Source of the DNA: Candidatus Obscuribacterales bacterium
GTDB taxonomy: Bacteria > Cyanobacteriota > Vampirovibrionia > Obscuribacterales > Obscuribacteraceae
Direction: 5' to 3'
NCBI GenBank assembly: GCA_965228855.1
Contig: CBDDIJ010000003.1
Location: 3,200,001-3,264,000 of the forward strand
Length of the DNA: 64,000 bases
Below the pieces are notes generated by a model. That model was given only the letters and a program-made list of their open reading frames with translations, was not told where the DNA came from and did no database searches. Numbering within the stretch: the first letter of the stretch is position 1; every line of letters starts with the position of its first letter. Of the stretch, positions 11,334 through 30,202 are shown piece after piece. The position numbers and the translations under genes are program-made.

Positions 11334-11407
11334 CTGCCCGTAGCCCAGTTGGATAGAGCGCATGGCTACGAACCATGAGGTCGGAAGTTCGAGTCTTCCC
11401 GGGCAGG
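11334..11407 (+). tRNA. tRNA-Arg(ACG), CCA not encoded; integration target
   Basis: Cloverleaf: CTGCCCG/CGGGCAG acceptor stem, D arm, CATGG-CTACGAA-CCATG anticodon arm, GGAAG-TTCGAGT-CTTCC T arm. Confidence 0.97.
11366..11407 (+). repeat. attL (3' half of tRNA-Arg)
   Basis: CTACGAACCATGAGGTCGGAAGTTCGAGTCTTCCCGGGCAGG; 38/42 identical to 30161-30202. Confidence 0.93.
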
Positions 11408-11523
11408 CTCTTTTTAGACAATTGAGTGTATCGCAAGTTAGCAACGAGTTAGCAGCACGTGAAAGCAACATCGTTGTGTGTCACCACGGGCGATATCACC
11501 GACACTGGGAGCAGATTCATTGA

Positions 11524-12549
11524 ATGTTAGAAGAAGGCATTGGGCGAACGACAGAGATTGATGCGCACGGTCATGTTACGCCAAGACACACGCTCGAAAA
11601 GATGGCGTCTGCCGTAAACGCTCCTGAAGGTGCGCAGGTCAATCTAATCAATCATGATTGGAGCATACCGCCAATCGGTAAGGTTATCAGGGCTGCGGTA
11701 CGGCCTCTGGACGACGGCTCCGAAGATTTCGCATTGCACCTTACCTTTGAGCGGTTTGAGGGACGCAATACGATTCAACTTCCAAGTGGAACGTCACTTG
11801 TTGTTCAAGGAAGCGAGAATGATGTTCGTCCATTTAGTTTTACGCAGCGGGACTATCAGCAAAATCTTGTAAGCCTGGTACTGGAGGCAAGAAACTTTCC
11901 CACAGTGCAAGAGTTGAAGTCTTTTAAGCAGGAGATTGACACCTCACCAATTTCTTGCCAGCTCGTCATTCAGCATGAGAAAGATCTACTAGTAACACCA
12001 AGTCTGCTGTTCCTACTCGGATACGGTTTCTTGGGCTGGTATGGGCTAAAAGTCAGCTCGAAGGTTGTAGACAAAATCGCCGATAAGCACGCAGAAAAAA
12101 TAATTGAAAACACCAATCAACTTATTCAGTTGTCGAAGCAGGCGGTAATCAGTTTCAAAAAACATCGAGGTGAGGCGGCAAGTACGCCCATGTTCCGGCA
12201 CCAGATTCAAGGTGACCCGATTGTAGAATTGGTCTACAGAGGAGAAGATGAACATTGGGCAAAATTAGGATTCTCGCAAGAAGCGCTTGAAGCAGCATTT
12301 GATCAAGCTCGCGAACTCAAGGAGCATGCTAACGCTGCCTACGTTCAATTTGTGTTTGACGATAAATGCCTGTGGAAGTTAAATTGGGCCGCTACAGACA
12401 AGGGTGAGATCGTCGCTAGCGAATACGCCCTCTCCATGAGAGACAGTTTGCTTCGAGAGATTGAAGAAGAGTGTAGATCTGAAGGAAGGACTGTGGGTCT
12501 ATCACCAGCCTACGTACCAACGGAAATAGAACTGCGTGAGAAATCTTAG
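11524..12549 (+). CDS. Hypothetical membrane protein with prohead-protease-like N- and C-terminal motifs
   Basis: N-terminal TTEIDAHG...LINHDWSIPPIGKV, central hydrophobic helix LLFLLGYGFLGWYGL, C-terminal EGRTVGLSPAY. Confidence 0.6.
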   Translation: MLEEGIGRTTEIDAHGHVTPRHTLEKMASAVNAPEGAQVNLINHDWSIPPIGKVIRAAVRPLDDGSEDFALHLTFERFEGRNTIQLPSGTSLVVQGSENDVRPFSFTQRDYQQNLVSLVLEARNFPTVQELKSFKQEIDTSPISCQLVIQHEKDLLVTPSLLFLLGYGFLGWYGLKVSSKVVDKIADKHAEKIIENTNQLIQLSKQAVISFKKHRGEAASTPMFRHQIQGDPIVELVYRGEDEHWAKLGFSQEALEAAFDQARELKEHANAAYVQFVFDDKCLWKLNWAATDKGEIVASEYALSMRDSLLREIEEECRSEGRTVGLSPAYVPTEIELREKS

Positions 12550-12717
12550 CGCTCCTCGCCAGGGTTTCTAGAAAACATACTTTTCCATTTAGCAAGCCCG
12601 ATGCCATCACGGGTGATACCGATTTCGAGACAGGCAGACCTATCGATATCACAAGAGCTTAAGACCTCCTTCCCTGTGCGCTATAATAGGCGCGCTAGTT
12701 CACAAGTGGTTGTTGAA

Positions 12718-13122
12718 ATGAATCATTGGTTGCTTTGTCTTCCGCGCGCAGACATGGAACACTGTATCAAGATCGGTACTTTCGGTCTCAATAGGAAATA
12801 CATGTTAGGACAAGTCCGCGTTGATGACGACATTGCGTGCTGTGCCGGAAAAGGCGAATGGATGATAGTCGGCATTGGCAAAGCGTCTAGCGAGTATTTT
12901 ATAGATGATCGGAAAAAGTTTCTGGGCAACGGCCTGTTCCCCGACCGATTCGAATTTAGAGCGAAGCAACTAGCAAGCTCTAACGAGGTTTCCTTAATTG
13001 AAATTCTTGACAAGCTTTCCTTTGTTAGTAACATCGCACACTGGTCTGTGTACTTCAGGAACGGTATCGTCAAGATCTCCGATCATGACTGGGATCTGAT
13101 AGCGTCATTGGTCCGGAAGTGA
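12718..13122 (+). CDS. EVE (PUA-like) domain protein
   Basis: MNHWLL...CIKIGTFG...MIVGIGKASSEYFID...FPDRFEF...LSFV...W...FRNGIVKISDHDWDLI pattern; ATG 12718 preferred over 12601. Confidence 0.8.
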   Translation: MNHWLLCLPRADMEHCIKIGTFGLNRKYMLGQVRVDDDIACCAGKGEWMIVGIGKASSEYFIDDRKKFLGNGLFPDRFEFRAKQLASSNEVSLIEILDKLSFVSNIAHWSVYFRNGIVKISDHDWDLIASLVRK

Positions 13123-13361: not shown

Positions 13362-16300
13362 ATGAGGCGCGCGACAGTGAGTCCGCCTAAGAAAAAGAAT
13401 CCCAAGAAACCATCCAATAAAAATGCTGAAAGCTCGAAACAGCGCGGAACATCTTCTGCTGCACGAAGGGGCCTTGTTGCCGAGACTGGAATTAAGTACC
13501 CTCCCATAGCGATCGAAATATCTAGCCTCAGTTCGTCTGCCAAGAAGAAGTTTGCCAAGTCACTCGAAAAATACCTGGACAATCTGGAGCGGCTTGTTAG
13601 TGAGAGTAGTCGCTCACATCGTTTCGCGATGTTCTTTCAAGAGATCTTCGGAGTTGAAACTGAGCTAATCGCAAAGTACACGACTGGAATAGAGAAGAGC
13701 CTTCGAGTAAAAAACGATGATCAAATATTGAGAGGTCGTGCAGACAATCTATTCGGCAACTTAATCATTGAGTTTGAATCCAAGATACCAGACAAGCTGA
13801 ATGAAGCAATAGAGCAGCTAAGAAGATACGTAGCGATTATTTGGTCCACCGAGCAGTTGAATGAGAGAACACCTTTTCTTGCGCTCGCCACTGATGGTGC
13901 TCGATTCTATATGTACTCCGCGACGGCTGATCAAACCAAGGCGTTTTTGAGTCCAGATGACGTTGAGCTTACCGAAGTAGACTACGTAGATTGGACTTCG
14001 CTCAATGCCGATGATGTATGGATGTGGGTTGACCGCTACTTCTGGCGAGAAGAGCCGATGATCCCGCAGACCAACACAATAGTTCGCGACTTCGGGATCG
14101 GAAGCCATGCGTTCAAAACCATCACGAATGTTTTGATGAGCCGATGGCAAAGCTGCAAATCAAAAAGCTCTTTTGATGTCGTTTATGATAGTTGGGAGAA
14201 GTATCTTAGGATCGTGTATGGCGAAACGGTCGGAGCCGATGAGCTGTTTATAAGGCATACATACCTAGCCACTTTTGCAAAGCTGCTCTCGTGGGTTCAT
14301 ATCAGCGAGAGCACGCACTCCCCTTCACTTGAAGAAATAAATGAAGTAATTAGTGGCGACTACTTCAAGAAACAAGGAATCGAAAATTTCATTGAGGAGG
14401 ATTTCTTCTCCTGGATCGTTAGAAGTGAAGCCTTATCTGACGGTATTAAGATCTGCAAGTGGTTGCTCAGCATTCTTCGAAAGTACGACTTGAGTCGACT
14501 CTCAGAGGATGTTCTCAAGTCGCTTTACCAAGAACTTGTCGATCCGCAAGCAAGGCGCTACCTCGGTGAATTCTACACACCAGATTGGCTGGCTGACAAA
14601 ATCGTATCTGGAGCATTGCAAAAGAAGCCGGAAGCAACAGTTTTGGATCCGACGTGCGGCTCTGGGTCCTTCCTCTATCTGGCGGTGAGACGCAAACGAG
14701 AACTTTTGGGAGAATCACAAGATACACTCGCCCATGTATTTTCGAGCGTTTGCGGAATTGATATCCACCCACTGGCAGTAATCATTGCGAAAACAAACTT
14801 CATTTTGGCGCTTGGCGGTCTCCTCGCTAAAAGAAAACAATCGGTCACTATTCCTGTCTATTTGAGCGACTCAATTCGCCTTCCAGAGAAGGGGCAGATG
14901 TCCGTTTTCTTGCAAGTCCCCGGATTCAAAGTCACCTTAGAGGGAACCGAAGTCTTCTTGCCAGAAGAGTTCGTTGAGGACTACAACCTTTACGATCAGA
15001 CAATCGAACTGGCGCGAGAGTATGCCAGGCAGCACGAGAAAAAGCCCATTGACGTAACCTCGTTCAAAAGTTTTCTCGAAGTTTCAAAATACCCAAAACT
15101 AAGTGATGACCAACTTGTCCGATCCGCGTTTGAAATTGCGAAGGTACTCAAAGACTTCATCGACAACGAGCGAGACTCAATTTGGTCGTATGTACTCAAA
15201 AACATCTACAAGCCGCTCTTCCTGAAAAACAAATTCGACTACATTCTAGGAAATCCACCATGGCTACCCTATCGGCTTATGGAGAGCCAGTATCAAAAAT
15301 CCCTCAAAGAGCAAATCGTCAGGCAGTACAAACTATACTGCGGCAAGGCAGAGATGATGACCGCTATGGAAGTCGCAACCCTGTTTTTGCTACGTGCAGC
15401 AGATCTCTATCTTAAGAAGGGCGGCGAGATTACTTTTGTTCTCCCCCGCTCAATTTTCTCTGCCGAACAACACGATAGCTTACGGAGGAAATCCTTCAAG
15501 CTCTTCGAGAACACAGATCAAACCGTTGATTGGTGCGAAATTTGGGATTTGAAAGACGTCAAACCAATTTTCAGATTTCCCTGCTGTGTGCTTCGTGCAG
15601 AGAAAATCGATTCCGATCCAAACCGCAAGCACACGCCGACACCAACACTCACATTCAGCGGGCGACTTCCAAACCGAAATTTGAAACTCTCTGATGCACA
15701 AATTCACTTGAGCCACCGAAGCGAACAATTGCAAACGCAATTGATCGGAAAACGCTCTTTCTGGGACACCAATACCACCACCGTTACAAATTTAGGGCGA
15801 AGCGCGTATTTTGACAAATTCGCAGAGGGAGCGACTATCGTTCCTCGGTGCTGCTGGTTTGTGACCATTGGCGCCACCAAGCTTGGTATCAATTTGAAGT
15901 GTCCAGCAATAGCGAGTGAGCCCCATGCGATGGCGACTGCAAAGGACGCATACAAAGGTGTTAGTATCAAGGGCACCGTAGAGAATCAGTTCCTGTACGG
16001 CACGATGACTGGTTCGGAAGTTATTCCTTTCGGCTCAACAGGAATGAGAGTCGTGCTCCTACCCCTACTACGAAAGAATGGAATTAGTAAGATTTTTGAA
16101 AGTGCTGATGCCAGATCATCAGGATTTCTCCACTTATCAAAATGGTTGCTTCAGGTTGAGAAAGTCTGGAGCGAACGACGTGGTGCAAAGGCCGGGAAGA
16201 TGACCATTTACAAGCGCATAAACCACAACAATGGTTTAACGCGTCAAAAGACAGACGCTCAATATAGAGTGGTATACAACGGCGCCGGTAAAAACATTTC

Positions 16301-16739
16301 TTGTGCAGTCATTGAAAAACAGAAGGACATGAGTACAAACATCAATGGCCAAGACATATCGTTGTCGGGGTTCATCGCGGACTGCAAACTAATTTATTTT
16401 GAAACGGATAATGCAAACGAAGCGTTCTACCTGGCAGCATTTTTAAACTCGTCAGAGGTCAACAAGCTGATTAAGCCGATTCAAAGCCATGGGGAACACA
16501 ATCCGCGAGACATTCACAAAAAGCCGTTTGAATTGCCAATACCAAAATTCGATCCCAAAGATCAAACCCACATTCGTCTTGCCAAGCTGTCGCGAGCAGC
16601 CACCGACAAGATTCGAAAGTGGTCCAAGTCAACGAATCTGTCAACGCAATCAATAGCGAAAACTCGTGCCCAGGCTAGGAGTCTAATTACTTCGGAACTC
16701 GAAGAGATCGACAGTATTGTGAAACCACTACTAAGCTGA
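13362..16739 (+). CDS. Type IIG-like fused restriction endonuclease / N6-adenine methyltransferase / TRD
   Basis: 1125 aa; N-terminal GRADNL...IIEFE...QL..Y...ATDG nuclease region; GEFYTP, DPTCGSGSF (motif I), GNPPW (motif IV); C-terminal TRD-like region (YLAAFLNS...LPIPKFD). Confidence 0.9.
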   Translation: MRRATVSPPKKKNPKKPSNKNAESSKQRGTSSAARRGLVAETGIKYPPIAIEISSLSSSAKKKFAKSLEKYLDNLERLVSESSRSHRFAMFFQEIFGVETELIAKYTTGIEKSLRVKNDDQILRGRADNLFGNLIIEFESKIPDKLNEAIEQLRRYVAIIWSTEQLNERTPFLALATDGARFYMYSATADQTKAFLSPDDVELTEVDYVDWTSLNADDVWMWVDRYFWREEPMIPQTNTIVRDFGIGSHAFKTITNVLMSRWQSCKSKSSFDVVYDSWEKYLRIVYGETVGADELFIRHTYLATFAKLLSWVHISESTHSPSLEEINEVISGDYFKKQGIENFIEEDFFSWIVRSEALSDGIKICKWLLSILRKYDLSRLSEDVLKSLYQELVDPQARRYLGEFYTPDWLADKIVSGALQKKPEATVLDPTCGSGSFLYLAVRRKRELLGESQDTLAHVFSSVCGIDIHPLAVIIAKTNFILALGGLLAKRKQSVTIPVYLSDSIRLPEKGQMSVFLQVPGFKVTLEGTEVFLPEEFVEDYNLYDQTIELAREYARQHEKKPIDVTSFKSFLEVSKYPKLSDDQLVRSAFEIAKVLKDFIDNERDSIWSYVLKNIYKPLFLKNKFDYILGNPPWLPYRLMESQYQKSLKEQIVRQYKLYCGKAEMMTAMEVATLFLLRAADLYLKKGGEITFVLPRSIFSAEQHDSLRRKSFKLFENTDQTVDWCEIWDLKDVKPIFRFPCCVLRAEKIDSDPNRKHTPTPTLTFSGRLPNRNLKLSDAQIHLSHRSEQLQTQLIGKRSFWDTNTTTVTNLGRSAYFDKFAEGATIVPRCCWFVTIGATKLGINLKCPAIASEPHAMATAKDAYKGVSIKGTVENQFLYGTMTGSEVIPFGSTGMRVVLLPLLRKNGISKIFESADARSSGFLHLSKWLLQVEKVWSERRGAKAGKMTIYKRINHNNGLTRQKTDAQYRVVYNGAGKNISCAVIEKQKDMSTNINGQDISLSGFIADCKLIYFETDNANEAFYLAAFLNSSEVNKLIKPIQSHGEHNPRDIHKKPFELPIPKFDPKDQTHIRLAKLSRAATDKIRKWSKSTNLSTQSIAKTRAQARSLITSELEEIDSIVKPLLS

Positions 16740-18205: not shown

Positions 18206-18712
18206 CTACTTAGTTCGGCGCCTATTCCCCAGAGCCTGACTTTGTCTCACTTCTCGCAACATTGCCAGGTCGCTCTCGTCGGGCTCCAAAATACAGATCT
18301 CAACATTCCACATATTGATCGCGGCGTGCTTGACCCAAACTTTCATCCCCTTTTCCGCAGCAAGCAAAATAACTAAAGTCGCATCGTGCCATGCTTCCGA
18401 ATGATGCTTCAGCGTTACCAACTTCAGAATGTCGCACGCGATCTTGTTTGGTTGAGCACCACGTAGACCATCAATCCCAGCATAGACCTCCACAAGAATC
18501 TTGGGGTCATGCGAGATTCCATCGACCTCCACGCGAACCTTATCAACATCGCTGATCAGAATAGACTGCGTGCGGAAGCCTTTGCCATTGCGTTCAAAGC
18601 AAACGCCCCTCAACTGCTCGAACCTATCGAGAAGCCTTTCGGCAATTATGCCTTGAAGAGAGGAGTCGCTAAGATCGGGCATCGCATCACACAATAGCAA
18701 CTGCACGGACAC
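18206..18712 (-). CDS. Putative PD-(D/E)xK-fold nuclease
   Basis: E...VEVDG...LVEVYA...KIACDILKL resembles a restriction-endonuclease-like core. Confidence 0.6.
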   Translation of the reverse strand: MSVQLLLCDAMPDLSDSSLQGIIAERLLDRFEQLRGVCFERNGKGFRTQSILISDVDKVRVEVDGISHDPKILVEVYAGIDGLRGAQPNKIACDILKLVTLKHHSEAWHDATLVILLAAEKGMKVWVKHAAINMWNVEICILEPDESDLAMLREVRQSQALGNRRRTK

Positions 18713-19084: not shown

Positions 19085-19912
19085 TCAAAACACGTTTTTG
19101 TCGCGAAGCTTGCCGGTGCTGTGATTGCACATTAGGTCCAGAGTGCCCGTTTGCCCGTCCCTGTTCCTGGCGATGATCAGTTCAACTTCCCCTCTCACAA
19201 GACTTTCAGGGTTGTAGAACTCATCTGAATAGATAAATCCGACAACATTTGCCACGCCCGCTTCTCGCAGATCGAGCAGTCTTGGTCGTTTGTCATTGCG
19301 TTCTTCCAGATCGCTCGCTACATGACAGGCGGCCACCACAGCGACATTGAGTTCAACGGCAACACTCTTAAGTTCTTCCAGATGCAATGAAACAGACTTT
19401 TCACCATCGGACATATGCGCGACAGGATCGACGAACACCAGCTTCACTTCGGTTCCTTCTTGAATTAGTTTCTTACACTCCTCGGAGATTGCGCTGGCGC
19501 CAATGAATGTAGAGTCATGAACATGAATCGGTGAGTTGCCGAGTTCCGAAAATGCAGTGTCCAATTTGAACCAGTCCGTGTCGTAGAGATAGCCTGTCCG
19601 AATTCGATTTGAGTCGACTTCCGCGAGGGTTCCCGCCATTCGCTGCACAATTTGCTCACGCGATACATCCAAGGAAAACCAAGCGATTGGGATTCTCTGG
19701 CCGACTCCGATGTTCAGCGCGAAATTCAAGCACAGTCTCGTCGTGCCCACACCAGGTCTGGCTGCTACGATCAGCAGCTCGCCTGCCTGCAATCCACCTG
19801 TGAGGCAGTCATAGTCAACAAAACCAGTAGAGAGCCCGGTCAGGCTCTTGCATTCAAAACGCCGTCGAATTTGAGCATACGAACTGGTAACTATGTCTTT
19901 CGAATGCAACAT
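19085..19912 (-). CDS. DnaB helicase C-terminal-domain homologue with degenerate catalytic motifs
   Basis: TGF..D..TGGLQAGELLIVAARPGVGTT, FSLDV, ERNDKRPRLLDLRE, ELIIARNRDGQTG; no N-terminal domain. Confidence 0.85.
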   Translation of the reverse strand: MLHSKDIVTSSYAQIRRRFECKSLTGLSTGFVDYDCLTGGLQAGELLIVAARPGVGTTRLCLNFALNIGVGQRIPIAWFSLDVSREQIVQRMAGTLAEVDSNRIRTGYLYDTDWFKLDTAFSELGNSPIHVHDSTFIGASAISEECKKLIQEGTEVKLVFVDPVAHMSDGEKSVSLHLEELKSVAVELNVAVVAACHVASDLEERNDKRPRLLDLREAGVANVVGFIYSDEFYNPESLVRGEVELIIARNRDGQTGTLDLMCNHSTGKLRDKNVF

Positions 19913-20069: not shown

Positions 20070-20699
20070 TCATGTAGACGATGCATATCCGTCCGAATTC
20101 GATTGAAATACTTCTTCCAGAATTTCATCTTCTGGGGCAGTCGACACGTTCGGCATCGCAGCAAAGAATTTCTCTGCACGAGCAATGACTTCGTCGATTG
20201 ACTTAGCTCTGAATATTTCGGTATGCAGTTGTTCAATGCCAACCGTAACGCTGTCTATTGCTGCGCGCTCCCACGTTCTGCGGCAGGGCCAAGTTCTGAT
20301 CGACATTGCGAACGGCGCTGAACATCGATGTTTTCTCAATCGCCCTTCCATGTCAGTAGTGAATCCCACTTTGATACGACCGGGGTCGTGCTCCGGTTCG
20401 AGCTGGACGATGTAAAAACATCCAACATCCGCAATCACATAGTCGAATTCGCTGCTGGCTTCTGTTCCAGTTCTGGTCCTGCTCACTACCTCTGAGCGCA
20501 CGGCCAGCGCTTCTTCTCTGGTAATCGTTGCCACAAGTTGGTTGCGCTTATCGGCATCGCGCCGTTTAATTGGTGTAATCCCGAGCCGCTTCGCGATTTT
20601 GAACAATGTCTGCTTATGGCACTGCATCTCATCCGCGAGATCCGGTAAGGCAATTCTATCTGCCAACTCTGAAACGATTGTCGGCTGTTCATCGCCCAT
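20070..20699 (-). CDS. HTH plus GIY-YIG (T5orf172-like) nuclease-domain protein
   Basis: GCFYIVQ...RIKVGFTTDMEGRL...WE...HTEIF; N-terminal HTH-like segment. Confidence 0.75.
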   Translation of the reverse strand: MGDEQPTIVSELADRIALPDLADEMQCHKQTLFKIAKRLGITPIKRRDADKRNQLVATITREEALAVRSEVVSRTRTGTEASSEFDYVIADVGCFYIVQLEPEHDPGRIKVGFTTDMEGRLRKHRCSAPFAMSIRTWPCRRTWERAAIDSVTVGIEQLHTEIFRAKSIDEVIARAEKFFAAMPNVSTAPEDEILEEVFQSNSDGYASST

Positions 20700-20738: not shown

Positions 20739-22247
20739 TTGTCATGTGGCAATCGGGACAATGCCGCACAGAGTAAGATGCTCAGATACTCGGAAAATAG
20801 TTCATCAAAACGAACACGTGCAATATCAGCCCAGGAGAAATATCACATGCATGGCAAGTTCAGCAGTCATAAGTTCGAACAACTTATCAATAAAGGAAAT
20901 CGAACAGGCAAGAAAGGCAATCACAAGGCAGCCCAAAAGTACTATCTGGAGGCCTTGCAGGAGACCGAAAAGAGCGGCACCGATCAAAAATCGAAGACGA
21001 TCGCGAACTTCAAACTTGGCGCCAGCGAGTATCGAAGAGGTAACCACGAAGCTGCAATCCCGTATCTGCTTGAAACCTACAAAGCCATTAATGAAGACTA
21101 TTTCGATGAAAAATCCAAGTTGCTCGTTCTGTCGGGTCTCGGTGCCTTCTACAATGCCAACGGCGAACTGCAACGTGCTGAAGAATTTCTGAATCAAGCC
21201 ATCAATATCGAACGTTCTCTTCGAAAGCAAGGCACACCTTATCTCGCCACAAATCTGGGGCTGCTGGGAAGCATCTACAGCTCCACGAGCCGCGTTTCAG
21301 ATGCAATACCGTTAATCGAAGAAGCCCTGTTGCTTATGCCGGAGCAGAGTCCATTCGAGCGCAGCACGCTAGAGCGACTCCTCGAAAAAATCTTGGAGGA
21401 GCAGGGGAATACCGAAAAGCTTTCGGCATTGAAGACTGCCAGAAACGAAAAACTACTCGAACGGGTCATGAAACCGCGCGCTATCAAGCGCGAGCCTTAT
21501 GACGTACCGAGGCATTGGCCTTGGGATAACGTCACGGAGTATCTCGATTACGTCTTTAGAAACACAGCTGCAACGGCGGGAAATGAGCCTGAGACCTTCC
21601 TTCAGTTTAGAAAAATCGATGCACAGTTCAGGGTTTTGGAAGAAAACTTACGAGCGTATTTGGCTACCAAGCTTGCAAGCCAGCGAAGTGAAGGCAAGAA
21701 GTTTTCACAACTTGTCGTTGACAATGAAGATTGGCTGGAAATCTTCTTCCTCATGCGAGCGCACTCCTCATGGCTCTCTGCCGTCGGTCTCTGCGCTGCC
21801 GGCCAAGTTCAGGAGGCTCACATGGTCTTGCGCGGCAGTGTCGAAAATGCCCTTTACGCATATCGGGTATTCAGGAGTCCGAAAGTTAAGAAGTACTGGT
21901 TTCGTCGAGACGATCCAGACCAAGAGGTGAGAGAAAAGGCGAAACGTTGTTTCTCCATCAAAGAAATTTCCACGCAGATGGAAGCAACTGATCCGTTTCT
22001 CAATGAGCGGTCTGCAGCATTGTATGAAACGTTGATTCAAGAGGGTGGACATCCGAACGTGCAGACATTTTGGAGATCTGCCATGCAAGAAAACGAACGG
22101 GGACAGTTGAGACTATCGGTCAGCTATCTTGATCCTGAGTCAGCGCCTCTACAAACGGTCATTGAGTCAGGAGAATTTTGTTTGTGGGTCTTTCAGATTG
22201 TCTTTCCGGAATACTCCGCTTATAAGGCGCCAAGTTCAGCTTCCTGA
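20739..22247 (+). CDS. TPR repeats fused to a HEPN-like (DUF5677-like) C-terminal domain
   Basis: N-terminal TPRs (LGAFY...AEEFLNQAI; LGSIY); C-terminal LRGSVENA...LYETLIQEGGHPN; probable start near 20849 (MHGKF). Confidence 0.65.
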   Translation: MSCGNRDNAAQSKMLRYSENSSSKRTRAISAQEKYHMHGKFSSHKFEQLINKGNRTGKKGNHKAAQKYYLEALQETEKSGTDQKSKTIANFKLGASEYRRGNHEAAIPYLLETYKAINEDYFDEKSKLLVLSGLGAFYNANGELQRAEEFLNQAINIERSLRKQGTPYLATNLGLLGSIYSSTSRVSDAIPLIEEALLLMPEQSPFERSTLERLLEKILEEQGNTEKLSALKTARNEKLLERVMKPRAIKREPYDVPRHWPWDNVTEYLDYVFRNTAATAGNEPETFLQFRKIDAQFRVLEENLRAYLATKLASQRSEGKKFSQLVVDNEDWLEIFFLMRAHSSWLSAVGLCAAGQVQEAHMVLRGSVENALYAYRVFRSPKVKKYWFRRDDPDQEVREKAKRCFSIKEISTQMEATDPFLNERSAALYETLIQEGGHPNVQTFWRSAMQENERGQLRLSVSYLDPESAPLQTVIESGEFCLWVFQIVFPEYSAYKAPSSAS

Positions 22248-22297: not shown

Positions 22298-23740
22298 TTA
22301 GTCGTCAAAATCATCAATGCAACCACCTCTGATGTACTGATAGTCTTTGAATGTTGAACGAGTGGTAGTTCGCTTCCAGACAAGCTCTTCACCAAGACCA
22401 AGGTGAACAAGCAGAAGCCCATTGAGAAGGGCACCAAGCGCGATGTTGGCACCAGCAATTTTCGTTGGTGACAATTTCTTTGCCCGCAACTTATCGGTGA
22501 AGTGCGTGTAATAGTTTCTCGTGTTCACAATTTCTCGCACCATGTCCCAATCGCCGACGAAGGACTCCTTGGTATCGGCCGGAAGCGAGTTCAGGAGATC
22601 GCTGAGCATGTCCCGCTGAGACAATTGATTTCCGTGTTCGATATTCGCCTTCAGCTTACCTTCGAACGAAGATTCGAGACCTTCAGGAATCAACTCCAGC
22701 AATTTTTTCAATAGAACGTCGTACTCTTCTTGCTGCATGTACACCTTTGTCCGAGTTGCACGATGAAACGCCTCCAGTGCCTGACACCACATCACAAAAT
22801 TTATCTCTGTGTGGAGCGCTGGATAACTCAGGAGGCTCGCAAAGAGAAATACTACGGACTGAAGACCTTCTGAACTGTCGTACCAATTTTTAACTGAGTT
22901 CTGAAATTGATTGGGATTCAACTCTGAAAGCCGTAGAAGCAGCCCATCTTTCTTGCGTCGTTTCCCCCATTCCTTTTCAATCGAAAAGTAGAGTGGCAAT
23001 AATTCTCCGGTCGGTGATGAAATTTGCGCCCGCAGCGGAGAGCAAGGGACACCATGAACCATTTCGAGGTAGTTTCCAAACATGGAAGCGAGGCGCAAAA
23101 GTTCCTGGATGACCATCGGTTTTCTCGCTTTGATTTCTACCCAAACTTCCTTGTTGACAGTAAGCTTTGAGCGCTCATTGCTCACGGTTCGCACGAACAG
23201 AAGATTTATTGCATAACCGCCCATATCAACGGACTGAAGAATCTCTTCCGAGGGCTCTGTTTTGTTCTCCTTCTGCTTTTCTTCGGGCAAAGCCGATTCC
23301 AATAGGTCTGAATACAGAAATCGCAAGGAGGAAGCTTCGAAGTTGTCCGCTTCAATGTGCGCGCCGATCACAACTCTTCTTGCATAAAACCGACTGTGAT
23401 TATAACCAGGGAATGTCATATTAGCCGAAGTCAGATCCGCGCCAATGATGGAGAAGGGTAAGCCAAGAGCAGAAATTCCGTGCAGGACGGCAGCCTGTTC
23501 AGCGATGCGTCGTCCTTCTCCGTTGGTGAATTCAGTCTGACCCTTTCGGGAACTCCACAGCCAATCTTGTAGCGATAATGACAACTGCGCCTTGGAGCCT
23601 TCCACCTTCAAAACGCCAGGAGCCTGATTCTCCATATCGCCTGGAAGCCACCAGTAGCCTTCAAATTCAAAGTCGTCAAACAACGTATACTTGACTGCGC
23701 CTAGTTCCGCTGCAACACGTTGACTTAGATTTGCCGTCAT
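22298..23740 (-). CDS. apeA: ApeA-like HEPN anti-phage protein
   Basis: N-terminal FEGYWWLP....PGVL, QALEAFHR, and HEPN RxxxxH motif RNYYTH. Confidence 0.82.
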   Translation of the reverse strand: MTANLSQRVAAELGAVKYTLFDDFEFEGYWWLPGDMENQAPGVLKVEGSKAQLSLSLQDWLWSSRKGQTEFTNGEGRRIAEQAAVLHGISALGLPFSIIGADLTSANMTFPGYNHSRFYARRVVIGAHIEADNFEASSLRFLYSDLLESALPEEKQKENKTEPSEEILQSVDMGGYAINLLFVRTVSNERSKLTVNKEVWVEIKARKPMVIQELLRLASMFGNYLEMVHGVPCSPLRAQISSPTGELLPLYFSIEKEWGKRRKKDGLLLRLSELNPNQFQNSVKNWYDSSEGLQSVVFLFASLLSYPALHTEINFVMWCQALEAFHRATRTKVYMQQEEYDVLLKKLLELIPEGLESSFEGKLKANIEHGNQLSQRDMLSDLLNSLPADTKESFVGDWDMVREIVNTRNYYTHFTDKLRAKKLSPTKIAGANIALGALLNGLLLVHLGLGEELVWKRTTTRSTFKDYQYIRGGCIDDFDD

Positions 23741-24303: not shown

Positions 24304-24365
24304 TTGGTTTTCCTCCGTGTACTACGATTAAAGCACGCGGGAAATGAAGAAGTTCTCCATTCCAT

Positions 24366-24408
24366 TCCCCTCCCCTCCCCTCCCCTCCCCTCCCCTCCCC
24401 TCCCCTCC
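24366..24408. repeat. (TCCCC)8 microsatellite; (GGGGA)8 on the minus strand
   Basis: Eight perfect pentamer units plus TCC. Confidence 0.95.
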
Positions 24409-24427
24409 TTTGCCACCATATTTGGTG

Positions 24428-25375
24428 TCATATAAAAAACGCACGAATCAGATCTCTTACTGTATGGACGTTGTTCGGTCCGCCATACACGCAACAAAAC
24501 TTCGAACCGTCAAGAGTTATTCGCAAGTTGTCTTTAGACCGATCATGTCCCTCCATCGCACAAAGAGGACATTGAGCAACCCAGCCGTTTCCAACTCTAC
24601 GTCGATCTGAGACGACATCCAATACATTAAAGCGCTTCGAAGAAAACCTCCTCTTCAAAATCGGACGGACTAATTTGCTGCGATCTCGTTGCTTATCCAA
24701 ATGACGCAAATACGAAGCAAGCCGCATTACGTGCTTGGCACTGTTCAGTTGCTGTTGTGTGAACCATAGCAATTGACTGTCAACATCTATAGCATTGCAA
24801 TTCTCGAACAAGCTCCTTCTATCACCGGCATCTGGCTTTCGGTGTATTCCCAGCGGAACGCGGAGGCAGGAACCGACTTTGTCCACACTGGATTGTTTGG
24901 GGAAGAACTCAAGCGCATCCGGTGGCAGTCCAGCATGCGCCATGACTTCGTCATTGAACCTCCTCAAGTCCGTTGCAGGCAGCGTTTGATCAAAGAATAG
25001 CCATAGATGCCCCTCCCTACCTTCTCTGCGCGCGTCAACAAGGCCGTGCAAACCTAAGCCGCTAACAACCTGTTCGATTTTGGCAAGCCTACCATCATCA
25101 TGGTCGCTGTCCCAGGCACACCATCTACAGTGCCCATTTTTATCCAGGGATGGGAGAGCGACAGTAATGCTTCCCTCAAAGTGTTTCCGGAATAATTCCA
25201 TGGTTACCGGTTCTTCTACAAACCTATAGCCAAAGAGAGCTTTGAACCTCCACTGCTGAAGATAACCATGGTTGCTATTCACCAGTTGGGAAGCGAACGA
25301 TTGAATCAAATCATTCTTCATATGCGATTCTCCTATCTCTTTAGTTAACGGCTTGGTCTCAGCTTGGTTGTGCAA
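24428..25375 (-). CDS. Archaeo-eukaryotic primase (AEP) family protein with C-terminal Zn-finger-like region
   Basis: WCAWDSD (DxD), GHLWLFF, LRVPLG; C-terminal CPLC...H...D..L...FCC; probable start 25321. Confidence 0.8.
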   Translation of the reverse strand: MHNQAETKPLTKEIGESHMKNDLIQSFASQLVNSNHGYLQQWRFKALFGYRFVEEPVTMELFRKHFEGSITVALPSLDKNGHCRWCAWDSDHDDGRLAKIEQVVSGLGLHGLVDARREGREGHLWLFFDQTLPATDLRRFNDEVMAHAGLPPDALEFFPKQSSVDKVGSCLRVPLGIHRKPDAGDRRSLFENCNAIDVDSQLLWFTQQQLNSAKHVMRLASYLRHLDKQRDRSKLVRPILKRRFSSKRFNVLDVVSDRRRVGNGWVAQCPLCAMEGHDRSKDNLRITLDGSKFCCVYGGPNNVHTVRDLIRAFFI

Positions 25376-25640
25376 ATCCTGCGCAATAACATGTACTGCA
25401 CGGGTCGAGATGTCTCCGGACGCGTGCTCAATTCAGATGTGCAATCACTCGCCGAGGAGCTCTCCTTTTCCGAATGCTCATTGATCAGCGGCGACCAAAA
25501 GCGCACGTGCCAGTTCCAATAACAATTGCAAGTGAGATTGAAACACGCGCTGTTCGGTCGCTTTACCTATGCAAGTGGTTCACTGCATAAGATTTGCACG
25601 GTTGCATAGTCCCCAGATACGAGAGCACCCAGGAGCCTCG

Positions 25641-27383
25641 TTAGTCCTTCGCCCCATTACTGTCCGATGTATCATTTCCTCTCGTCCGCAGCTTGCGCGG
25701 CAAGAATCCACGCACTTTTTTGGAATTCTCAATCGCTCTTTTGGCTGCCAATTGAGTAAAGTTTTCACAGCCAATGGCGGCTTGCTCGGCGACCATCTCT
25801 TTTTGAGCTTGTGAGAATTTTGGACCCGATTTGAAGCGCTGCTCGCCGCCAGGATCGACACTGGCAACCTCGATGAGACCAAGCTCCCGCCATGCCGCTA
25901 CATAGCTGTCCACGGTTCTCTTACTCTTTACAAGAAGTTGGCGCATTTCAAGCCGACTGAGAGTCTTTTTCTTGTAACCAAATCCTTGTTTCGCCGCATC
26001 CAGATCATCGTCATCAAGAATCTCGATGATTTTGTAAAATGCGTTTTCATGAGCTTGTCCGCTTGCTTGGTAGACGCTCGGGACACAACATTCGAAAACA
26101 TCAACCACCTCATTGTAATCCTCAATTGTTGCAACCAACACCTTCCGTTCTTCTATGATGTTGACCTCTCGATTGTGCTGGTTCAGAAGAGCGTGACTTG
26201 CGATTAATACCTTCAAGAGATCTACTCGACGGCAATCGTCTTCATGGAGACTTTCGCGATCGCCCTCCTCATGAATTTGCCTTAGGAATGACATTTCAAT
26301 ATCATTCAGCGCATCTGAGTTGCTACTATCTAAAGATTGAAGTCTCGAAAAGAAACAGTTCCATCCTTTCCAAATTTCCCGGCATCGCTCTACCGAAACC
26401 TGCTCGGCCGCGCCCAGCTTGATGGCCATTACCTTTACTAGAGACTCCATGTTGTGAGTGATCTCGATCCAGAAGCTTCGATTTCTCCACTGTTCATCCC
26501 ACTTTAACGGATGCGTAACTGTCGTCGCGACGTGGTGTACTGGGCCTTTCAAAACATACTGAACTGAACGCCGGCCCTTGCCAGTGACCTCCTCGCTTGA
26601 CTTGTGTATGTAGACACCTTTGGTCGTAAGCTGCCATATGATCTGTAGCATCTTGAAGGGTTGGACGACGGCTGGCGGATTCAGTTCGTCATGGACAACA
26701 ATCTTGTTTGCAAGCCCTTCTCCATCAGTCCCACCAGCGAACACAAGACCCAACTCGCTGCAAGAAGATTGTCTTTCGATAACGCCGCTGTCACCGCCAG
26801 TGGTGCAATCTAAAAATCGAAGGATCTGCTCGACATATGCACTCTTTCCAGCAGAACTCGAACCATAGACCATGGTCTGTGTCCCCATCAGAGTGCCAGT
26901 TTTCTGCCATGCCACCAAGTTGAGTTTTTGGAAGCCGATTACGAGCAGCGCCATCTTTGTAAGCAATGCGGATGCCCAATAACCGGTAAGATTGAAGTCT
27001 TGATGAAACCGCGAGGAGATTCTCCCTTCGGCTTCAAGTTCTTGAGCAAACGCATTTTCCATCTCAGTAAACTGAACACCCTCCCGCTGTGCCTGGTCAT
27101 CGGAAACCCTCGTGTAAATCCGTCTCAGTTTGCAATAAGACTTGTCGATCTCTGTGATCAGCTTTCCCGTTTCTTTGCTCCAGTGCGAGAAATGAGCTTT
27201 AACCTGATCGTCGCTTTGACCCGCGACGATCATCTCGACAATTTGGTGCTCCAAATCTGCTTCCGAAAGCGTTGACGATTCTACGCACTCCGGTTCTGTT
27301 TCAACTGCTTCACCAGCGATCATTTTCTTTGCATCCTCAAGTGTCAAATCCGGTTTGCTTGAGTCTGACTCATTCGTTTCCAT
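25641..27383 (-). CDS. P-loop ATPase/helicase-like replication protein
   Basis: Walker A GSSSAGKS, Walker B VVHDE; lies between Xis-like and primase genes. Confidence 0.7.
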   Translation of the reverse strand: METNESDSSKPDLTLEDAKKMIAGEAVETEPECVESSTLSEADLEHQIVEMIVAGQSDDQVKAHFSHWSKETGKLITEIDKSYCKLRRIYTRVSDDQAQREGVQFTEMENAFAQELEAEGRISSRFHQDFNLTGYWASALLTKMALLVIGFQKLNLVAWQKTGTLMGTQTMVYGSSSAGKSAYVEQILRFLDCTTGGDSGVIERQSSCSELGLVFAGGTDGEGLANKIVVHDELNPPAVVQPFKMLQIIWQLTTKGVYIHKSSEEVTGKGRRSVQYVLKGPVHHVATTVTHPLKWDEQWRNRSFWIEITHNMESLVKVMAIKLGAAEQVSVERCREIWKGWNCFFSRLQSLDSSNSDALNDIEMSFLRQIHEEGDRESLHEDDCRRVDLLKVLIASHALLNQHNREVNIIEERKVLVATIEDYNEVVDVFECCVPSVYQASGQAHENAFYKIIEILDDDDLDAAKQGFGYKKKTLSRLEMRQLLVKSKRTVDSYVAAWRELGLIEVASVDPGGEQRFKSGPKFSQAQKEMVAEQAAIGCENFTQLAAKRAIENSKKVRGFLPRKLRTRGNDTSDSNGAKD

Positions 27384-27415
27384 GCCTGTTTCCCCTTCTT
27401 ATTCGTAAGGTAAGC

Positions 27416-27667
27416 CTAGTCCTGCGATGTTGAAGTCTTGATTTGTTGCTCGACCCAGTCTTCCAGGTCCGCTCTTTGGTACCGCACGATCCTGCGAGAC
27501 AGTCTGCAAAAACGCGGTCCATTGCCCCTCATCCGACTAACCTCAAGAAACCGTACGCTGACACCAAGAAGCTTTGCCGCTTCTGCAGTTGAAAGTAGCA
27601 ACGAGTCAGCACCAGTGTCACAACCGAGATCCACGGGACTGCTGCCTTTCTCCTTCGAATCATCCAT
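27416..27667 (-). CDS. AlpA/HTH_17-type excisionase / DNA-binding protein
   Basis: LLSTAEAAKLLGVS...GNGPRF.RL..RIVRY...DLEDW; ATG 27667 with GGAGG RBS. Confidence 0.88.
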   Translation of the reverse strand: MDDSKEKGSSPVDLGCDTGADSLLLSTAEAAKLLGVSVRFLEVSRMRGNGPRFCRLSRRIVRYQRADLEDWVEQQIKTSTSQD

Positions 27668-27792
27668 ATCTGTCCTCCTCTCCGGCTTCACCAAGAGCCG
27701 ACAGGAAAGACTCTGACATTCGAAACCGGCCTTACCAATGGTGCGGCCGGAGTCCATAAGTTCTGTAACGCTCAGCGCCGAAGCTGTGCAGG

Positions 27793-28500
27793 CTAAATTT
27801 TTCCTTCCTCTTTCAACCTTCGAATGACACGCCTGACAGAGTCTATATCTTTGTATAAGGGCCTAATTCGCTTGAGAATTACTGCTGCCAGCCTATGCTG
27901 GCTCGTCTGAGGTGCCAACACCCGATAGAGTCGAAGAACCTCCGCCTCACGCGTTTCTGCGTTGGCCCTGTTTGTAGTTTGCGCTTTTTTACTATTAGCT
28001 CGGTTCTTTTCACATATTGTTCTCCCGAGAGGAGCGAGTCTCGCGTCCTCCCGGCGAAGTATCAGTTGATAATCCGAATAGAGATGGAGCAATTGAAAAT
28101 GAAACTCGTCACCCTCGCCGCCAAGAGATTCTGCAATCAACGAACGATAGTACAGATCGAAGAAACTCTGCATGTCTTCTTCAGAAATGCACCGAATCTT
28201 CGAATCCAACAACTGCTGTGCCGACCTTTGCATGCGGCACGCTTCCATCATAGCGGTGGCATACGTTCGAATTTCCATAATCATCTCAAGCTTACTCTTT
28301 GCTGTCCATGGACCGTGCTGAACTAGTTCCTCGAATTCAGGGTCATCAACTATGTCAAAGTCGAAGGGTCTAGGCATCCCTTTTGCGATTTCCCTGAGGC
28401 GTCTGTTTTGAATGCTACATAAGCCTTCGAGACGCGCATCGAAAGCTTCTGTCCACCATGGCGGTCTATTGCCTTGACGTTGCTCGTTCAAGCCGTCCAT
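27793..28500 (-). CDS. Hypothetical protein, possible C-terminal HTH
   Basis: 235-aa ORF; basic helical C-terminus. Confidence 0.65.
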   Translation of the reverse strand: MDGLNEQRQGNRPPWWTEAFDARLEGLCSIQNRRLREIAKGMPRPFDFDIVDDPEFEELVQHGPWTAKSKLEMIMEIRTYATAMMEACRMQRSAQQLLDSKIRCISEEDMQSFFDLYYRSLIAESLGGEGDEFHFQLLHLYSDYQLILRREDARLAPLGRTICEKNRANSKKAQTTNRANAETREAEVLRLYRVLAPQTSQHRLAAVILKRIRPLYKDIDSVRRVIRRLKEEGKI

Positions 28501-28629
28501 TCTTTTCTCCCAATTGTTGCAGCAGCGCGAGACGGGAATATCGCCTCCGATAAATCAAGTCGTGAAAGTCTATCAGCATTTCCTGACGAATCGATGCTGT
28601 TTCCATTTCTATTTCGAAAGTTTAAAAAC

Positions 28630-28682
28630 GGTAGGAGCAAGGTAGCAACGCCTTCCTACCGCATTCCTACCGCATTCCTACC
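28630..28682. repeat. 11-bp-phased GGTAG(G/C)A boxes (two direct, three inverted)
   Basis: GGTAGGA 28630, GGTAGCA 28641; TTCCTACCGCA x2 plus TTCCTACC at 28653-28682. Confidence 0.75.
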
Positions 28683-28719
28683 ATTCACTACTGCCGCCAG
28701 TGTAGCACCGTCTCTAGTA

Positions 28720-29928
28720 TCATCCCGATTTGCTTCGAGGCAGAACAATGTCGGAATTTGAGTCCGTCATCAGTCCCGGAGCGTGTTCACCCGCTATTCG
28801 CATAAGCTTTTGACCATGCTGCTCAAGGGCCTCCCTGACGTTGTCCTGACCAAATCGAGCGTATATCGCCGTCGTCGATGGATTTTTGTGATTCAAGATT
28901 TTTCCTATGAGATGCAAGCTGTTTCCCGACTGCGCCAGCCAGGAACCGAGTGTGCGGCGCAAGTCATGCAAACGAACATCTTCCACGCCAGCCGATTTCC
29001 TGATTCGATTCCAAATCTTCTGTATATTGACCAGGTGATGCCCGCGTTTTTCCCCTGGCAACAGGTAAGGATTGTTTTCTTCCTTAGGTAAGGTGAGGAG
29101 TATTGCTAGTGCTGGCGCACTAATCGGAACATAATGAATGGTTCCGCTCTTGGTGTCGGGCAGTCTCAGTTCTTGCCTCTCCCAATCAACGTCCTCCCAT
29201 TTTGCTCGAAGCAATTCATCCCGTCGAACGCCAAGCAGAAGGTATAACCATATTGCGGTCTTGCCGAAAAAGTTAGTTTCCTGAGTGATTGCGGCGGCGA
29301 GCCGAGGCAACTCATCCTGTTTGACCCACCGGTCTCGCTTAATTTCTTTATATGGCTTTATACCTCTGGAAGGGTTCGAATGTTCGTCAGGAAGAAAGCC
29401 CCAAGTCTTAGCTAATTCGAACATTTTCGATATCTGTTCAACGAGACGATTTGCGGCATAAGGATGGTCTCGTCCAATCGAAAAGTGGAGGTGCGCCACA
29501 TCGGCCCTAGTGATTGCTCCCAGGCGACAGGTTCCAAAGGCAGGAACGAGATACTTTTCAATGCGTCGCTGGTCCTCTCGCCAAGTTTTCTTGTGCTGTT
29601 TCGCGTATCTCTCCAAATAGATTGCGCCGAACTCCCTGAAGGTAATGGTTTTTCCTTCCGTGCTTTCGAACGGGTCTTTGCGATCAATTAGCGAAGCAAG
29701 ATGTTTTCTTGCCCGATCTTTCGCTTGATCAAGAGTTAAAACACCGTATTTGCCTATCACTTTAATGTGCTGACGCCCTTGATGCCTATAAGACAGCACA
29801 AACGATTTCTTTCCTGTCGGATAGACCCGCACGCCAAAGCCAGGCAAAGCGCGATCCCAATGAATTAGTTGAGATCCCTTGTCTTTAGAGTATTCTAATT
29901 TGTCGATAATACTTTTAGTCAGAGTCAT
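28720..29928 (-). CDS. int: Tyrosine recombinase/integrase with N-terminal arm-binding domain
   Basis: WD..LPGFGVRV...G.KSF arm-binding domain; GVRRDE, TK, HDLRRT, LNH...TAIY catalytic residues. Confidence 0.96.
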   Translation of the reverse strand: MTLTKSIIDKLEYSKDKGSQLIHWDRALPGFGVRVYPTGKKSFVLSYRHQGRQHIKVIGKYGVLTLDQAKDRARKHLASLIDRKDPFESTEGKTITFREFGAIYLERYAKQHKKTWREDQRRIEKYLVPAFGTCRLGAITRADVAHLHFSIGRDHPYAANRLVEQISKMFELAKTWGFLPDEHSNPSRGIKPYKEIKRDRWVKQDELPRLAAAITQETNFFGKTAIWLYLLLGVRRDELLRAKWEDVDWERQELRLPDTKSGTIHYVPISAPALAILLTLPKEENNPYLLPGEKRGHHLVNIQKIWNRIRKSAGVEDVRLHDLRRTLGSWLAQSGNSLHLIGKILNHKNPSTTAIYARFGQDNVREALEQHGQKLMRIAGEHAPGLMTDSNSDIVLPRSKSG

Positions 29929-30160: not shown

Positions 30161-30202
30161 CTACGAACCATGAGGTCGTACGTTCGAGTCGTACCGGGCA
30201 GG
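30161..30202 (+). repeat. attR (displaced tRNA-Arg 3' half)
   Basis: CTACGAACCATGAGGTCGTACGTTCGAGTCGTACCGGGCAGG; the 5' half of the tRNA is absent. Confidence 0.93.

Follow-up and report, generated by a model that had tools for sequence, protein, structure and literature searches.

The 341-amino-acid protein encoded at 11524-12549 (+ strand) of the window (the whole stretch of 64,000 nucleotides that was analysed) belongs to an unnamed family in which the histidine-bearing half of a prohead-protease fold, an ancestry supported by sequence comparisons and predicted structure, precedes an insert of about 240 residues modelled as a soluble alpha/beta fold and, in some members, a C-terminal segment predicted to contribute the serine strand. 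The architecture has no precedent in any library searched, which would still hold should the mechanism proposed here prove wrong: none of the models in Pfam, NCBIfam, PHROG and PADLOC corresponds to the family, and no account of the family or its architecture was found in the literature, where large defence screens could list a member in their supplements. The first-pass annotation, made from the sequence of the window alone, had called the gene a candidate for an undescribed system. The family probably has a role in anti-phage defence. By membership tests it is outside both the prohead proteases and the Bell effectors, and in its working it most likely resembles a protease-triggered membrane effector.

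Gene and genomic element

The gene, confirmed as real, is the first after a tRNA-Arg(ACG) gene, starting 116 bases downstream of it, within an 18.8-kb insertion flanked by a 42-nt repeat. Because the right copy of the repeat matches the 3' end of the tRNA and almost every base downstream of it in a same-genus genome (G302), it represents the host end displaced by the insertion. Several att copies are present in each of the same-genus genomes (L033-L041), and so the tRNA gene is a hot spot for tandem islands. The two att copies of the window differ by paired changes in the T-stem of the tRNA. The integrase, HTH_17 protein and AEP primase of the element are encoded at its far end, and its cargo includes EVE, type IIG restriction-modification (RM) and ApeA-HEPN genes. 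In line with the remark of the first-pass annotation that there is no capsid or portal gene here, no portal, terminase or capsid family was matched among the element ORFs scanned. The host genome has no match to PF04586. The features of the gene and element are listed here by window coordinates and strand.

11334-11408 (+): tRNA-Arg(ACG), the integration site
11366-11407 (+): left att copy, 42 nt
11524-12549 (+): 341-aa gene, predicted split prohead-protease fold around an alpha/beta insert (structural model, family alignment and searches)
11524-11757 (+): residues 1-78, His half of a prohead-protease/assemblin barrel, with the His44 codon at 11653-11655
11839-12483 (+): residues 106-320, the alpha/beta insert, to which no solved structure clearly corresponds (tautomerase-like topology, highest Z 5.2)
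11977-11985 (+): residues 152-154, beta-hairpin loop and candidate cleavage site, K-D in the query
11986-12165 (+): residues 155-214, hydrophobic strand and amphipathic helices, the lowest-confidence part of the insert model, with a weak likeness to Bell-like N-terminal helices
12421-12522 (+): residues 300-333, a helix and the G-x-S strand that align with the catalytic Ser strand in proteases of solved structure, with the Ser327 codon at 12502-12504
12718-13122 (+): neighbouring EVE-domain gene of 134 aa, probably starting at 12718 and preceded by a promoter-like site (12659-12687)
13362-16739 (+): type IIG RM fusion (E 4e-90)
22298-23740 (-): ApeA-like HEPN protein
24428-29928 (-): element backbone of AEP-TOTE primase, 580-aa ORF, HTH_17 protein and tyrosine integrase
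30161-30202 (+): right att copy

Prohead-protease ancestry of the histidine half

The sequence motifs on which the first-pass annotation had based a prohead-protease ancestry are present in the query at the positions claimed (D13-A-H-G; N43-H44-D45 followed by P50-I-G52; and, near the C-terminus, G325-L-S327-P-A-Y), and they occur above chance across 127 near-full-length members of the family (126 members of 285-390 aa from the best 150 of 175 clusters, plus the query). The only invariant residue of this alignment is His44 (127/127), in the position of the catalytic His in the H-D...P-x-G hallmark of prohead proteases; Gly52 and Pro50 are each conserved in 122 members, and Asp13 and Asp45 each in 97. 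Profile searches gave no S78 or PHROG protease match for the query itself. Among its relatives, four of the 127 match the XkdF protease model (PF14550, Peptidase_S78_2) weakly (best 5.5e-4), one matches the phrog_80 head maturation protease (1.4e-5) and one matches Peptidase_S78.

The AlphaFold model of the query (pLDDT 91.9, pTM 0.90) is consistent with these matches, with fold scores that are all middling (Z below 6, and no Foldseek E of 0.001 or less). Of 48,161 solved chains, the prohead protease T4 gp21 (5jbl) is at the top, tied with tautomerases (Z 5.6, rmsd 3.8, 103 residues aligned), only part of the barrel being matched; the assemblins of VZV and HCMV are also among the matches. In BFVD, Foldseek matched prohead proteases and XkdF over 78-125 columns (probability up to 1.0, E > 0.001), and many of the 50 viral matches listed are prohead proteases or XkdF proteins, every one with E > 0.001. 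Sequence and predicted structure thus agree in supporting the derivation of the His half from a prohead protease.

The query shares with T4 gp21, the HK97-type Peptidase_S78 proteases, Peptidase_S78_2 (XkdF) and phrog_80 the N-terminal strands, the D-x-x-G and H-D...P-x-G motifs and a G-x-S strand. It differs from all of these in having approximately 240 residues ahead of the Ser strand and nothing after it, in belonging to a family that has lost the Ser strand in 99 of 127 members, and in that neither head operons nor phage records yielded a member of the family. No alternative nucleophile is evident: Ser97 (80/127) and Thr10 (91/127) are not enriched in the members without the Ser strand.

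The C-terminal serine strand

The C-terminal segment of the query model aligns to the catalytic Ser strand of solved proteases. The catalytic serines of gp21 and HCMV assemblin are presumably at positions 140 and 132, and the alignment with gp21 places residues 1-340 of the model on residues 38-151 of the chain. Pseudorabies virus assemblin aligns at chain residues 4-119 with residues 1-337 of the model (Z 5.3, rmsd 4.5, 96 aligned); with no gap at the end of this alignment, Ser327 would fall on Ser109, with His128 and the Arg136/137 loop beyond the match. According to PMC4498786, the triad of this assemblin is His43, Ser109 and His128, with an oxyanion loop at 133-142 containing Arg136/137. 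The same barrel half is recognizable in the herpesvirus assemblins 4v07, 1vzv and 8j3s, and the matches to 4v07 and 8j3s stop just past the Ser strand, so that in these two the query has no counterpart of strand beta6 (with His128) or of the Arg-Arg oxyanion loop. Two other alignments (4v08 and 1vzv, with rmsd 5.9 and 8.6) extend to later chain residues. The query ends 14 residues past Ser327; since nothing follows the Ser strand, the third catalytic residue has no place there, and neither this residue nor the oxyanion loop was found after the strand. The model (pLDDT 81 for residues 321-330, and below 50 from 334 onwards) supports a split fold in which the GLS segment folds back onto the His half, which would bring His44 and Ser327 together.

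A C-terminal G-x-S tail, a pattern that was written after the tails had been seen, is present in 28 of the 127 members, compared with 2.2 +/- 1.5 in 1000 shuffles (maximum 8), mostly 17-27 residues past a fixed anchor. Tails were found in at least five separate clades of a tree built without them, including all six members of the query clade and all three of its sister clade, and 99 of the 127 members have no Ser strand. The simplest reading of this unrooted tree is that the tail is ancestral and was lost repeatedly. One member (P0070) has the tail GELTGMSIGF, a type of motif typical of HK97-type proteases. The first-pass annotation had proposed that the His and Ser halves are separated by an insert, and had named as checks the packing of the C-terminal strand into the barrel and the conservation of the Ser in homologues: the separation and the alignment of the strand are borne out in the query, and Ser conservation in its clade; the third triad residue is unmatched, and conservation of the Ser does not extend to the family.

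The L046 member has no Ser tail. A search beyond the stop codons at 24 loci for a hidden Ser strand gave three matches outside the gene, none of them convincing. At L049 (967-1725, - strand), a distant 252-aa protein has the His half (hhalign 96%), directly followed, in the usual protease order, by GMSVAF and then by a hydrophobic segment. The L049 gene, possibly of a sister family, adjoins a RecD-like helicase gene.

The insert and its hydrophobic segment

Modelled alone, residues 106-320 form a confidently predicted domain (pLDDT 90.4) with no solved match above Z 5.2. A constitutive membrane domain between the two halves, as the first-pass annotation had it, is not supported: the models show the insert as a soluble domain of alpha/beta type, in which a single segment is hydrophobic, and that marginally. 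This segment, LLFLLGYGFLGWYGL (residues 161-175), overlaps a modelled beta-strand (residues 160-165) that is followed by helices, and residues 166-185 are the least confident stretch of the insert after its cut N-terminus. The best 19-residue Kyte-Doolittle mean is 1.51 in the query, the family median is 1.46 and 16 of the 127 members reach 1.8; a strongly hydrophobic 19-residue helix of the kind expected in an integral membrane protein was not found. Tautomerases (the MIF family) have a beta-alpha-beta fold with a catalytic Pro1; the tautomerase matches (Z 5.0-5.8, identity 5-13%) have no conserved Pro opening the matched strand. As identities of the insert, tautomerase, MUS81-EME1 and COMMD were all considered and none was accepted, every match being weak, and two weak matches to pilin-like leaders were judged to be due to chance.

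Just ahead of the hydrophobic segment, a hairpin loop has K or R followed by S, A or G at 153-154 in 111 of the 127 members, and then the family motif P-D-P-E. The query clade has drifted at this candidate cleavage loop (K-D-L-L-V-T-P). HK97-type proteases cut after Lys, with a habit of cutting between K and S; no literature support for this habit was found.

Residues 155-214 weakly resemble Bell-type killer helices. The family profile weakly found small cyanobacterial ORFs that start with MEP, one of which (L052) is upstream of an NB-ARC gene with which it has a terminal motif in common. Bell effectors as described in bioRxiv 2020.01.06.895854 and 2024.11.07.622273 have a layout that matches this arrangement, and the name Bell for the MEP ORFs is our own assignment, by analogy of layout. 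A profile built from 25 MEP-type ORFs scored at least 10 bits with 22 of the 127 members, none of the 127 reversed sequences, none of 635 locally shuffled sequences and 3 of 2115 host ORFs, a comparison that is partly circular because the seed ORFs came through the family's own profile. Between the family and the Bell-like profile, hhalign gave 76% (E 2e-5) over residues 173-240, the P-D-P-E motif being outside the match, and the query scored only 10.3 bits. What links residues 173-240 to Bell/HeLo/MLKL-type effectors (e.g. Bab/Agp) is this weak profile resemblance to cyanobacterial ORFs upstream of NB-ARC genes; unlike the N-terminal helix of an all-helical Bell/HeLo bundle, the query segment is internal to an alpha/beta domain and partly beta-strand. 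No NLR partner (NB-ARC or NACHT) was found among 134 neighbours of 24 family loci, and no amyloid motif was seen.

Distribution of the family

A full HMMER scan assigned 175 clusters to the family at E <= 0.001, mostly of 300-340 aa. Single-sequence searches with the query found no relatives in Pfam, PHROGs, PADLOC, PDB sequences, plasmids, phages or 300 genomes of the phylum, and a word search of 5.8 billion proteins was also blank; with the alignment, the word search returned two proteins. In the ESM Atlas, the matches were clusters without a name, of 306-334 aa (0.94-0.96), and residues 1-110 gave no match to any named protein. No NCBIfam family was matched except for SEC-C tails in two members, and no PADLOC 2.0 model matches more than one of the 127 members at E <= 0.01, or the query at all. 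One close relative is labelled Ca. Obscuribacterales, and the loci fetched are from Bacillota, Bacteroidota and cyanobacteria; named members occur in cultured non-pathogens, with examples in Emticicia (WP_015026263.1), Paenibacillus and Exiguobacterium. The spread is patchy: none of seven same-genus genomes and one of 80 relatives possess a member, and further genome samples by phylum contained three in 400, one (divergent) in 400, and no true members in 400, respectively. In 50,697 phage records, neither of two queries gave a match. The member P0105 (612 aa) is fused to a PNP_UDP_1 domain, and the two in rows 49 and 74 of the alignment have SEC-C tails. Five of the 28 copies fetched (L020, L024, L025, L026 and L028) are present in split or fragmentary form, as accessory genes that are costly would be expected to be.

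Genomic neighbourhoods of family members

The scan of neighbourhoods took in 24 of the 28 loci fetched, leaving aside two near-duplicates and two short loci, and covered 134 of the 150 ORFs lying within 4.5 kb; the 24 represent the Ser-less core of the family, the query clade being known from the window and one short contig. PADLOC models matched neighbours at E <= 1e-10 in 16 of these loci, and in 13 after removal of cross-matches to ABC ATPases, histidine kinases, MerR, trypsin and generic methyltransferases, a filter that was set after the matches had been seen. Fifteen 10-kb control regions, taken from ordinary chromosome rather than other mobile cargo, gave five raw and two filtered matches, both of the latter to kinase models. 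The defence-island setting proposed by the first-pass annotation is therefore seen among the relatives (13/24 loci against 2/15 control regions). The neighbours include Gabija, Dazbog, type I and type IIG RM, Tiamat, AbiE, PD-T7-4, GmrSD and several PDC candidates; Gabija, Dazbog, PD-T7-4, SIR2 and RM genes directly adjoin family members in several phyla, the L011 member is inside a type I RM operon, and the only plasmid copy (WP_015026263.1) is between RloB and Kiwa genes. Integrases or serine recombinases are present within 4.5 kb in seven of the 24 loci, and at L006 an integrase is accompanied by a D5-like primase. Eleven of the 24 loci have no defence neighbour, and the members at L014 and L045 are among metabolic genes. 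In the unrelated loci L002 and L046, a DUF5677 gene is directly downstream of the family member.

No partner family is common to the 24 loci, and none of their 134 neighbours matches EVE, which speaks against the partnership with the adjacent EVE gene that the first-pass annotation had suggested. The other outcome that it had foreseen, homologues mainly in phage head operons, was not encountered: no portal, terminase or capsid match appeared among the 134 neighbours, and the two queries matched none of the 50,697 phage records.

Proposed mode of action and alternatives

Capsid sensing and membrane killing, which the first-pass annotation had suggested, are inferences. In the model, the soluble insert is predicted to hold the hydrophobic segment as a strand. 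Late in infection, a phage prohead protease, or a strand from it, would dock on the half-barrel; docking in trans would account for a His that is always retained next to a Ser strand that the protein can do without. The chain would then be cut at the K/R-S/A/G loop (152-154), and the new N-terminus (x-P-D-P-E-hydrophobic in the family) may refold as a Bell/HeLo-like helix that damages the membrane, by which the infection would be aborted. Granted a role in defence, phage head maturation has a somewhat better than even chance of being the trigger, and granted this trigger also, a cut and a membrane helix are likely. The complete chain, from a stand-alone half-protease engaged by the phage maturation machinery to the release of a membrane-damaging helix, is the most economical reading, possible but advanced tentatively. 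The family as a whole cannot consist of enzymes that are complete in cis, because 99 of the 127 members have no Ser strand and all lack what follows it.

Two known kinds of immunity provide precedents for parts of this chain. According to PMC12991175, CBASS is set off when a phage prohead protease cuts the CD-NTase in an exposed loop, and a cut of this kind by the phage maturation protease is the trigger proposed here; the CBASS sensor described there is a nucleotidyltransferase in an operon, whereas the query is a single gene with a protease-derived half. In bioRxiv 2024.11.07.622273, a Bell-type helix is described as a requirement for abortive infection. The query family may conceivably be a one-gene immune trap, a half-protease that, once completed or cut by the machinery of the invader, unmasks a hidden Bell/MLKL-type helix, and by analogy it could, with equal caution, be likened to a gasdermin with a built-in viral protease sensor. 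The Ser strand ahead of the insert (L049), after it (query clade) or lost (most members) might form a natural series from enzyme to sensor, a suggestion about as tentative. A phage depends on head maturation and can hardly alter it, and it is only recently that prohead proteases have been shown to be immunity triggers, in CBASS. If true, the proposed chain would represent a new class of sensor built from the prohead-protease fold, an enzyme of virion assembly recruited into defence, and proteolytic unmasking would become a further route by which Bell/HeLo-type killing is reached.

The incomplete protease fold, the marginal hydrophobicity and the company of integrase, HTH_17 and primase genes in the window element (and of an integrase and a D5-like primase at L006) would also suit a dominant-negative decoy, in which the half-protease binds or enters the prohead or protease and blocks maturation with no membrane killing, in the manner of satellite-style interference. 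Such a decoy is unlikely, as it leaves the conserved 240-residue insert and the Bell-like segment unexplained, and many copies are in plain defence clusters, that of L011 being inside a type I RM operon. A sensor triggered by binding with no cleavage, in which the half-barrel recognizes a peptide of the capsid, scaffold or portal, upon which the insert reshapes and oligomerises on the membrane, is quite unlikely: the lack of a Ser strand in 99 of the 127 members, the low confidence of residues 166-185 in the insert model and the activation of Bell-type effectors by assembly (bioRxiv 2024.11.07.622273) are in its favour, but chemistry is the simpler explanation for an invariant His at the catalytic position and for the conservation of the basic-small loop.

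The version of the first-pass annotation, a complete self-processing protease (His44 with Ser327) wrapped around a membrane domain and acting with EVE, is very unlikely. Although the Ser strand is present in all six members of the query clade and aligned to the catalytic strand, and the L049 protein passes directly from its His half to a GMS strand and then to a hydrophobic segment, there is no third triad residue or oxyanion loop past the Ser, and a phage protease cut before the third catalytic residue is expected to be inactive according to PMC7411985; in addition, the insert is modelled as soluble and EVE is absent from the 134 neighbours. It is also not likely that the family is non-defence cargo of mobile elements, found near defence genes only since both ride on islands. 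Integrases or serine recombinases near seven of the 24 loci, members among metabolic genes at L014 and L045 and the lack of any fitting PADLOC model are compatible with such cargo; set against them are the phage-derived fold, the PNP_UDP_1 fusion, the Gabija, Dazbog, PD-T7-4, SIR2 and RM genes that directly adjoin members in several phyla, and a distribution so patchy that none of seven same-genus genomes possesses a member.

Other features of the element and genome

Between the type IIG RM and ApeA genes, the element encodes a 168-aa ORF without family matches (18206-18712, -), a stand-alone DnaB C-terminal domain (19085-19912, -), a T5orf172-like gene (20070-20699, -) and a 502-aa TPR protein with an unassigned C-terminal domain (20739-22247, +), which is convergent with the ApeA gene and is a candidate sensor-effector. 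A run of CCCCT pentamer repeats (24355-24414) is just downstream of the primase gene. A long repeat at 58640-59650 of the window encodes the proline-rich repeats that end a transporter-like ORF and also the QP-x-R repeats that open the overlapping next ORF, which could be an oddity of assembly or reading frame. Elsewhere in the genome there are a dense array of 21 tRNA calls (G000:C3:724518-727973) and a smaller cluster of five (1529761-1530653).
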